Below, piece after piece: positions 5,601 to 7,279 of a stretch of 7,279 nt of DNA (the first letter of the stretch is position 1; each line of letters opens with the position of its first letter). The DNA is from a virus. Lineage: Duplodnaviria; Heunggongvirae; Uroviricota; Caudoviricetes. The DNA lies in IMG/VR virus record IMGVR_UViG_2740892369_000004; one strand, 5' to 3'. Made by a program: the position numbers.

Positions 5601-7279
5601 GGATGTTTATGACGAGCAAAGAAACCTTTACCCATTACCAGCCGCTGGGCAACAGTGACCCGGCTCATACCGCAACCGCGCCCGGCGGATTGAGTGCGAA
5701 AGCGTCTGCAATGACCCCGCTGATGCTGGACACCGCCACCCGTAAGCTGGTTGCGTGGGATGGCACCACCGACGGTGCTGCCGTTGGCATTCTTGCGGTT
5801 GCTGCTGACCAGACCAGCACCACGCTGACGTTCTACAAGTCCGGCACGTTCCGTTATGAGGATGTGCTCTGGCCGGAGGCTGCCAGCGACGAGACGAAAA
5901 AACGGACCGCGTTTGCCGGAACGGCAATCAGCATCGTTTAACCTTACCCTTCATCACTAAAGGCCGCCTGTGCGGCTTTTTTTACGGGATTTTTTTATGT
6001 CGATGTACACAACCGCCCAGCTGCTGGCGGCAAATGAGCAGAAATTTAAGTTTGATCCGCTGTTTCTGCGTCTCTTTTTCCGTGAGAGCTATCCCTTCAC
6101 CACGGAGAAAGTCTATCTCTCACAAATTCCGGGACTGGTAAACATGGCGCTGTACGTTTCGCCGATTGTTTCCGGTGAGGTTATCCGTTCCCGTGGCGGC
6201 TCCACCTCTGAATTTACGCCGGGATATGTCAAGCCGAAGCATGAGGTGAATCCGCAGATGACCCTGCGTCGCCTGCCGGATGAAGATCCGCAGAATCTGG
6301 CGGACCCGGCTTACCGCCGCCGTCGCATCATCATGCAGAACATGCGTGACGAAGAGCTGGCCATTGCCCAGGTCGAAGAGATGCAGGCAGTTTCTGCCGT
6401 GCTTAAGGGCAAATACACCATGACCGGTGAAGCCTTTGATCCGGTTGAGGTGGATATGGGCCGCAGTGCGGCAAACAACATCACACAGTCCGGTGGCACG
6501 GAGTGGAGCAAGCGTGACAAGTCCACGTATGACCCGACCGACGATATCGAAGCCTACGCGCTGAACGCCAGCGGCGTGGTGAATATCATCGTGTTTGATC
6601 CGAAAGGATGGGCGCTGTTCCGTTCCTTCAAAGCCGTCAGGGATAAGCTGGATACCCGTCGCGGCTCTCATTCCGAGCTGGAGACAGCGGTAAAAGACCT
6701 GGGCAAAGCGGTGTCTTATAAGGGAATGTATGGCGATGTGGCCATCGTCGTGTATTCCGGACAGTACGTGGAAAACGGCGTCAAAAAGAACTTCCTGCCG
6801 GACAACACGATGGTGCTGGGGAACACTCAGGCACGCGGTCTGCGTACCTATGGCTGTATTCAGGATGCGGACGCACAGCGCGAAGGCATTAACGCCTCTG
6901 CCCGTTACCCGAAAAACTGGGTGACTACCGGCGATCCGGCGCGAGAGTTCACCATGATTCAGTCAGCACCGCTGCGTCGAAAACGCGGCGATGTTGCAGG
7001 ATAAACCAGTACTTATCTTCTCGCTGGAGATGCCTTCAGAACAGATTATGATGCGTTCTCTGGCGTCGCTGTCGCGCGTTGACCAGACGAAAATCCGTAC
7101 CGGGCAGCTCGATGATGAAGACTGGGCGCGCATTTCCGGCACCATGGGTATTTTGCTCGAAAAACGCAATATCTATATCGATGACTCCGCCGGCCTGACG
7201 CCAACGGAAGTGCGTTCCCGCGCACGCCGTATTGCCCGTGAACACGGCGGCATCGGGCTTATCATGATCGACTACCTGC

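Follow-up and report, generated by a model that had tools for sequence, protein, structure and literature searches.

What makes the capsid gene E of a lambda-like phage run, with no gene boundary in between, into the interior of a bacterial-type dnaB helicase gene? The window (the whole stretch of DNA analysed, 7279 nt) raises this question near its right end, where the first-pass annotation placed an abrupt junction between the two genes and proposed three origins for it: an illegitimate recombination or deletion endpoint in a defective prophage, an engineered construct, or a chimeric assembly or concatenation artefact.

Source contig and anatomy of the join

The window has the same extent as an entire contig, the 7279-bp JHEW01000102.1 of draft assembly GCA_000695115.1. 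JHEW01 is the draft genome of the STEC O26:H11 strain 97-3250 (PMC7649339; PMC8405628). The sequencing platform and the assembler used for JHEW01 are given in neither of these two accession-citing papers, and neither JHEW nor 97-3250 appears in the announcement of 240 STEC drafts (Trees et al., 2014; PMC4125765). The features of the window that bear on the join are the following.

1..6974 (+): lambda-like prophage head module (gene calls and Pfam; RefSeq annotation; 100% identical over 6974 nt to NZ_CP027599.1 3020033-3027006)
53-598 (+): Nu1 (gene call)
573-2498 (+): terminase A (gene call), with an internal TGA
2495-2701 (+): W (gene call)
2698-4299 (+): portal B (gene call)
4280-5599 (+): C/Nu3 (gene call)
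5609-5941 (+): D (gene call)
5997..6974 (+): E', codons 1-326 of the 341 codons of capsid gene E (translation; intact 341-aa E in the closed genomes)
6974..6975 (no strand): chimeric junction with zero bases of microhomology (three-way comparison of contig, prophage and dnaB)
6975..7004 (+): E-frame read-through into dnaB sequence, RRKRGDVAG then stop (translation, gene calls)
6975..7279 (+): dnaB fragment that enters codon 244 at its third base and has arrived at the first base of codon 346 when the contig ends (303/305 to the dnaB genes of strain 97-3250 and related STEC)

The position of the join was defined by BLAST with a 605-nt query. Bases 1-300 of this query (window 6675-6974) align with lambdoid phage and prophage capsid genes, and bases 301-605 (window 6975-7279) match chromosomal dnaB in every E. 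coli genome; the phage side stops at base 300 and the dnaB side begins at base 301. The abrupt junction reported by the first-pass annotation is thus exact and falls at 6974/6975, and the sequence to its right is, as had also been claimed, an internal portion of dnaB (codons 244-346) in a different frame, +1 relative to E. At the join the contig reads …caccgctg/cgtcgaaaac…, the prophage …caccgctg/atgctgctgg… and dnaB …gatgaacct/cgtcgaaaac…. Past this point the phage would go on with 'a' (atgctgctg...) and the dnaB base just before it is 't' (...gaacct), so that both flanks follow their parent loci up to the junction base. The E frame reads …SAPL up to the join, with a codon boundary after Leu326; the claim that the break lies mid-codon in both genes therefore holds for dnaB, which is entered at the third base of codon 244, but not for E.

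As a consequence of the join, E' lacks the final 15 codons of E (MLLADPDEFVSVQLA*). Translation continues past codon 326 for nine codons to a TAA at 7002-7004, and the fused product was called as a 335-aa Phage_cap_E protein at 5997-7004 (E residues 1-326 followed by RRKRGDVAG). Among the gene calls of a public assembly collection, an exact match to this protein is found in JHEW01000102.1 only.

No sequence feature that could account for the join was found at it. No common k-mers of 9 nt or more were detected within 150 nt on either side of the two parental breakpoints, on either strand; direct and inverted repeats within 200 nt on either side of the join were of chance-level length (8-13 nt), with none at the join itself; no tRNA or att-like feature was found there, nor any IS end, terminal inverted repeat or target-site duplication. 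The earlier description of a join devoid of spacer, inverted repeat or att-like sequence is upheld in full. A rearrangement mediated by an IS or another transposon was considered and rejected, with no element end at the join and flanks that match the parents to the junction base. A blunt, homology-free join of this kind is what ligation or template-switch chimeras give, unlike the graph-based collapse of an assembly at a shared repeat, and it bears no trace of an event driven by an IS, an integrase or microhomology.

The opposite end of the contig was also inspected. Here (window 1-30) the contig begins within the loop between the arms of a perfect inverted repeat of 15 nt (GAAAGGAAACGACAG ... 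CTGTCGTTTCCTTTC). The cosN sequence GGGCGGCGACCT lies about 137 nt upstream, so that the left end, too, falls at a structured site near cos. This end matches the closed genome perfectly, and therefore no chimera is present on the left.

In a BLAST search of 5,426 complete E. coli genomes, among them both closed genomes of strain 97-3250, the junction query was nowhere matched over 80% or more of its length in one place. Among 50,697 phage records, 80 matched the query, none of them across the junction (0/80), and all of these matches stop at query base 300. An exact junction 37-mer had no match in genome_contigs, viral_contigs or metagenome_contigs. The co-occurrence of the two halves, proposed earlier as a check, gave the same picture, with no record matching both in one place among the E. 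coli genomes and the phage records.

These searches bear on the suggestion that a natural phage gene for a DnaB-type helicase, or a moron, lies after the capsid gene. Some phages do encode DnaB-family helicases, such as gene 12 of P22 and ban of P1. However, no phage record runs past 6974 into the tail sequence, and the fragment is 99.3% identical to the chromosomal dnaB of the host and begins mid-codon at residue 244, without a start codon and out of frame. The first-pass annotation had itself put forward contiguity of 6975-7279 with E in phage genomes as the finding that would speak against its reading; such contiguity was seen in no phage genome, so this is not a natural phage dnaB, and we give that explanation virtually no credence.

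Both parent loci in the closed genomes of strain 97-3250

Two independent closed assemblies of strain 97-3250 were available for comparison, NZ_CP027599.1 and NZ_CP074773.1, both derived from other DNA preparations than the draft JHEW01. In NZ_CP027599.1, window 1-6974 is found on the + strand (3020033-3027006) at 100% identity, and the capsid gene carries on to its natural end as a complete E of 341 aa (3026029-3027054, +), followed by FI, FII, Z, U, V, G, T and H (tape-measure). E is intact in NZ_CP074773.1 too, in the same arrangement, with FI next to it and the further genes after FI. Judged by these alignments, window 1..6974 is the authentic portion of contig JHEW01000102.1. The dnaB locus, examined in NZ_CP027599.1 only of the two closed genomes, holds a complete gene of 471 aa (5533580-5534995, -) between qorA and alr; the tail (6975-7279) maps there to 5533960-5534264, on the strand opposite to E. 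The two genes thus lie 2.5 Mb apart on opposite strands. The junction query finds five places in this genome, four of them in prophages, leaving one for dnaB. Since the two parts of the window match different loci of one genome, with 100% identity over 6974 nt for the first and 303/305 for the second, the two-part split is far beyond chance.

This arrangement weighs heavily on the proposal that the join is a fixed feature of the 97-3250 stock used for the draft, whether as a deletion, an inversion or an illegitimate-recombination endpoint in a defective prophage. The prophage does look defective, with the internal TGA in its terminase gene and an IS600 inserted upstream. But joining E (+, 3.03 Mb) to dnaB (-, 5.53 Mb) would take an inversion of 2.5 Mb, with dnaB broken at codon 244. 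The dnaB gene is essential in E. coli, so that cells in which this breakpoint was fixed could survive only if they had a second dnaB. Moreover, E is intact in both closed genomes, dnaB is intact in the one examined and the join occurs in 0/5,426 complete genomes, which makes a fixed rearrangement very improbable. The more specific version of this idea, an endpoint of microhomology-mediated illegitimate recombination or deletion, was rejected: zero bases are shared at the join, and a fixed event would break dnaB, which has a single place in the closed genome. The recombination or deletion endpoint proposed by the first-pass annotation is thus contradicted by closed genomes in which E is intact with FI to H downstream of it, and by the intact dnaB of the one in which that locus was examined.

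The phage part of the window belongs to a region present more than once in this strain. In NZ_CP027599.1, a late region of at least 15 kb is carried by two prophages, one integrated in ttcA (the Rac site) and one next to yebY; the comparison covered 2541290-2556260 for the yebY copy and 3016033-3031006 for the Rac-site copy. From one side to the other, the duplicated region holds lysis genes and the IS600 insertion, then head genes, including terminase with its TGA, and finally tail genes. The two copies differ by three 1-nt homopolymer gaps only, at window-equivalent positions 6821, 8503 and 9368, with none at 6974; otherwise they remain identical for at least 4 kb to either side. These gaps are single-base deletions in G4 or T5 runs of the yebY copy, where RefSeq lists capsid, U and V as pseudogenes with frameshifts. 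The deletions resemble errors of long-read sequencing at homopolymers in NZ_CP027599.1, and the three genes would then not be real pseudogenes. The shared late region implies that co-resident prophages of strain 97-3250 have recently recombined or undergone gene conversion. The draft contig JHEW01000102.1 is probably a collapsed two-copy repeat.

The phage part is also 99.7-100% identical to records of Stx1a-converting phages. When the Stx1a-phage version of the region was used as query, the best place in strain 97-3250 was again the Rac-site copy, and two further partial prophage copies in NZ_CP027599.1 were not located with this query. The possibility that the phage part represents the Stx1a prophage itself was nevertheless discarded: its 100% matches in strain 97-3250 fall in the non-stx prophages at ttcA and yebY, and the Stx1a phage LC645428 has TGG where the window has TGA.

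This last difference concerns codon 51 of the terminase A gene (window 723-725), which is TGA in the window and TGG (Trp) in lambda-type phages. In the annotation of both closed genomes of strain 97-3250, terminase A figures as a pseudogene interrupted by an internal stop, and an exact 71-mer containing the TGA is found in only 20 of 3758 matching E. coli records. The terminase TGA is real and not an error of the draft. DNA packaging would need read-through of the UGA, or else the prophage would be defective.

The same comparison bears on an engineered or vector-derived contaminant, such as a lambda cloning vector or a transducing phage carrying a dnaB insert. Lambda arms bluntly fused to a fragment of an E. 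coli gene would look superficially similar to the contig. Against such a construct, all 6974 nt of the phage part are 100% identical to a prophage of the strain itself, including the rare terminase TGA, whereas the last 300 nt of E in the window are only 97.7% identical to lambda J02459; E, in which the break falls, is an essential capsid gene and not a cloning site; and the dnaB fragment has its best matches (303/305) in, among others, related STEC and the finished chromosome of strain 97-3250 itself. The engineered construct suggested in the first-pass annotation is contradicted by these identities, and we regard it as extremely improbable.

Origin of the dnaB tail

The tail differs from the dnaB gene of the same strain at two positions.

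7089 (+): T>G, Thr282 ACT>ACG, synonymous; private difference relative to same-strain dnaB
7189 (+): T>G, Ser316Ala, TCC>GCC; private difference relative to same-strain dnaB

Compared with the closed genome, mismatches thus number 0/6974 nt on the left of the join and 2/305 nt in the tail (Fisher p = 0.0018). Neither G was found in a search of 5,426 complete E. coli genomes, where no match exceeded 159/161 over the 161 nt that contain the two sites, and a 29-mer with the G at 7189 is absent from genome_contigs (species-representative genomes) and from metagenome_contigs. The idea that the two substitutions are natural alleles was rejected on this basis; both are probably sequencing errors. With the closed genome of the strain itself and genomes of related STEC among its best matches, the tail looks like the dnaB of strain 97-3250 read with errors, i.e., like low-coverage sequence. 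The two T>G sites are exactly 100 nt apart; this spacing may be a coincidence or may reflect a cycle-specific miscall in fixed-length reads.

The length of the tail is a further element. The join lies 305 nt from the contig end, and the contig stops inside dnaB, which occupies one place per genome. There is no repeat inside single-copy dnaB to halt a genuine assembly path, and the size of the tail therefore appears to be set by the length of a read or of a fragment.

Could the assembler have caught a real, subclonal rearrangement present in the sequenced culture? Such a molecule might be DNA of an induced prophage end-joined to a chromosomal fragment, or a duplicated piece of dnaB carried by one prophage copy in a minority of cells. 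Strain 97-3250 harbours several inducible-looking lambdoid prophages with RecET-type recombination genes, and a blunt join without homology would also be expected from rare illegitimate recombination. However, the join is missing from NZ_CP027599.1 and NZ_CP074773.1, a pair of private T>G changes within 305 nt suggests poor reads rather than a replicated molecule, the contig halts 305 nt into unique sequence, and in an assembly graph the path through intact E would normally win over a variant present in few cells. A subclonal rearrangement is accordingly very unlikely, and we likewise see only a slim chance that the join is a real but rare molecule, a blunt, homology-free fusion of induced-prophage DNA with dnaB captured by chance in the library. 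If it were so, the rare fusion could have arisen as a side product of DNA breaks or end-joining that the phage brings about in O26 STEC.

The join is almost certainly an artefact of assembly or library preparation, and not a structure of the 97-3250 chromosome, as far as can be judged from sequence comparison. This reading is favoured because finished genomes of the strain have E intact (both) and dnaB intact (the one examined), 2.5 Mb apart, and because the tail is enriched in private differences and the join is terminal in the contig. Three hallmarks of an artefact were found here: a junction absent from the finished genomes, partner loci that are intact and unlinked, and a foreign piece that is short, terminal and of lower quality. 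Of the three origins proposed by the first-pass annotation, the chimeric assembly or concatenation artefact is thus the one that the data support, and neither illegitimate recombination or deletion nor an engineered construct receives support.

In the scenario that we propose, assembly of the lambdoid head module, which has at least two identical copies in strain 97-3250, would have halted near codon 326 of E, and a single low-coverage read, or a few such reads, either chimeric or mis-joined, would then have appended 305 nt of dnaB to the contig end. Two genomic fragments could have been ligated bluntly, a template switch could have occurred while the library was being made, or the assembler or scaffolder could have introduced a spurious join; the exact chimera-making step we infer to be ligation, PCR or the assembler.

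On this reading the join has no biological significance, and its practical significance is modest. The mis-join has left two spurious items in public collections, a "major capsid protein" of 335 aa and a stray piece of dnaB in which the Ser316Ala change is false, and scans for unusual junctions, for truncated genes, for host-to-phage transfer or for dnaB variants would be misled by JHEW01000102.1. We suggest that the contig be trimmed at 6974 and that the 335-aa "capsid" and the Ser316Ala dnaB fragment be treated as spurious. The case offers a clean example of how such a question is settled, first by asking whether a window corresponds to a whole draft contig and then by setting it against a closed genome from that strain.

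Comparison with known systems

A join of phage and host DNA made by illegitimate recombination without extensive homology is a property of specialised transducing phages such as lambda gal and lambda bio, which the present contig resembles only superficially. These phages carry att-adjacent host DNA, which replaces phage DNA at the att-proximal end. In contrast, the dnaB gene of strain 97-3250 (5.53 Mb) is nowhere near the integration sites at ttcA and yebY, and the break falls inside E. A specialised transducing phage, or aberrant excision of the prophage, was rejected for the same reason, dnaB being located 2.5 Mb away between qorA and alr and not flanking an att site.

A natural interruption of the same capsid gene is known from a closed genome. 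In strain 95_0274 (NZ_CP074785.1 3595933-3599211), the homologous gene is split by IS621, an IS of the IS110 family. That case resembles the present one in that the same E gene is interrupted, but there the IS is complete and flanked by both halves of E, whereas JHEW01000102.1 has no IS end, inverted repeat or target duplication and the other half of E is absent.

The closest counterparts are the chimeric contig ends of short-read and hybrid draft assemblies. In these, as here, distant loci are bluntly joined within a few hundred bases of the end of a contig; the foreign tail is short, enriched in errors and redundant with an intact copy elsewhere; and the contig lies in a multi-copy lambdoid prophage region, where drafts tend to fragment. 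Nothing sets the join at 6974/6975 apart from this kind, and it is an ordinary chimeric contig end.
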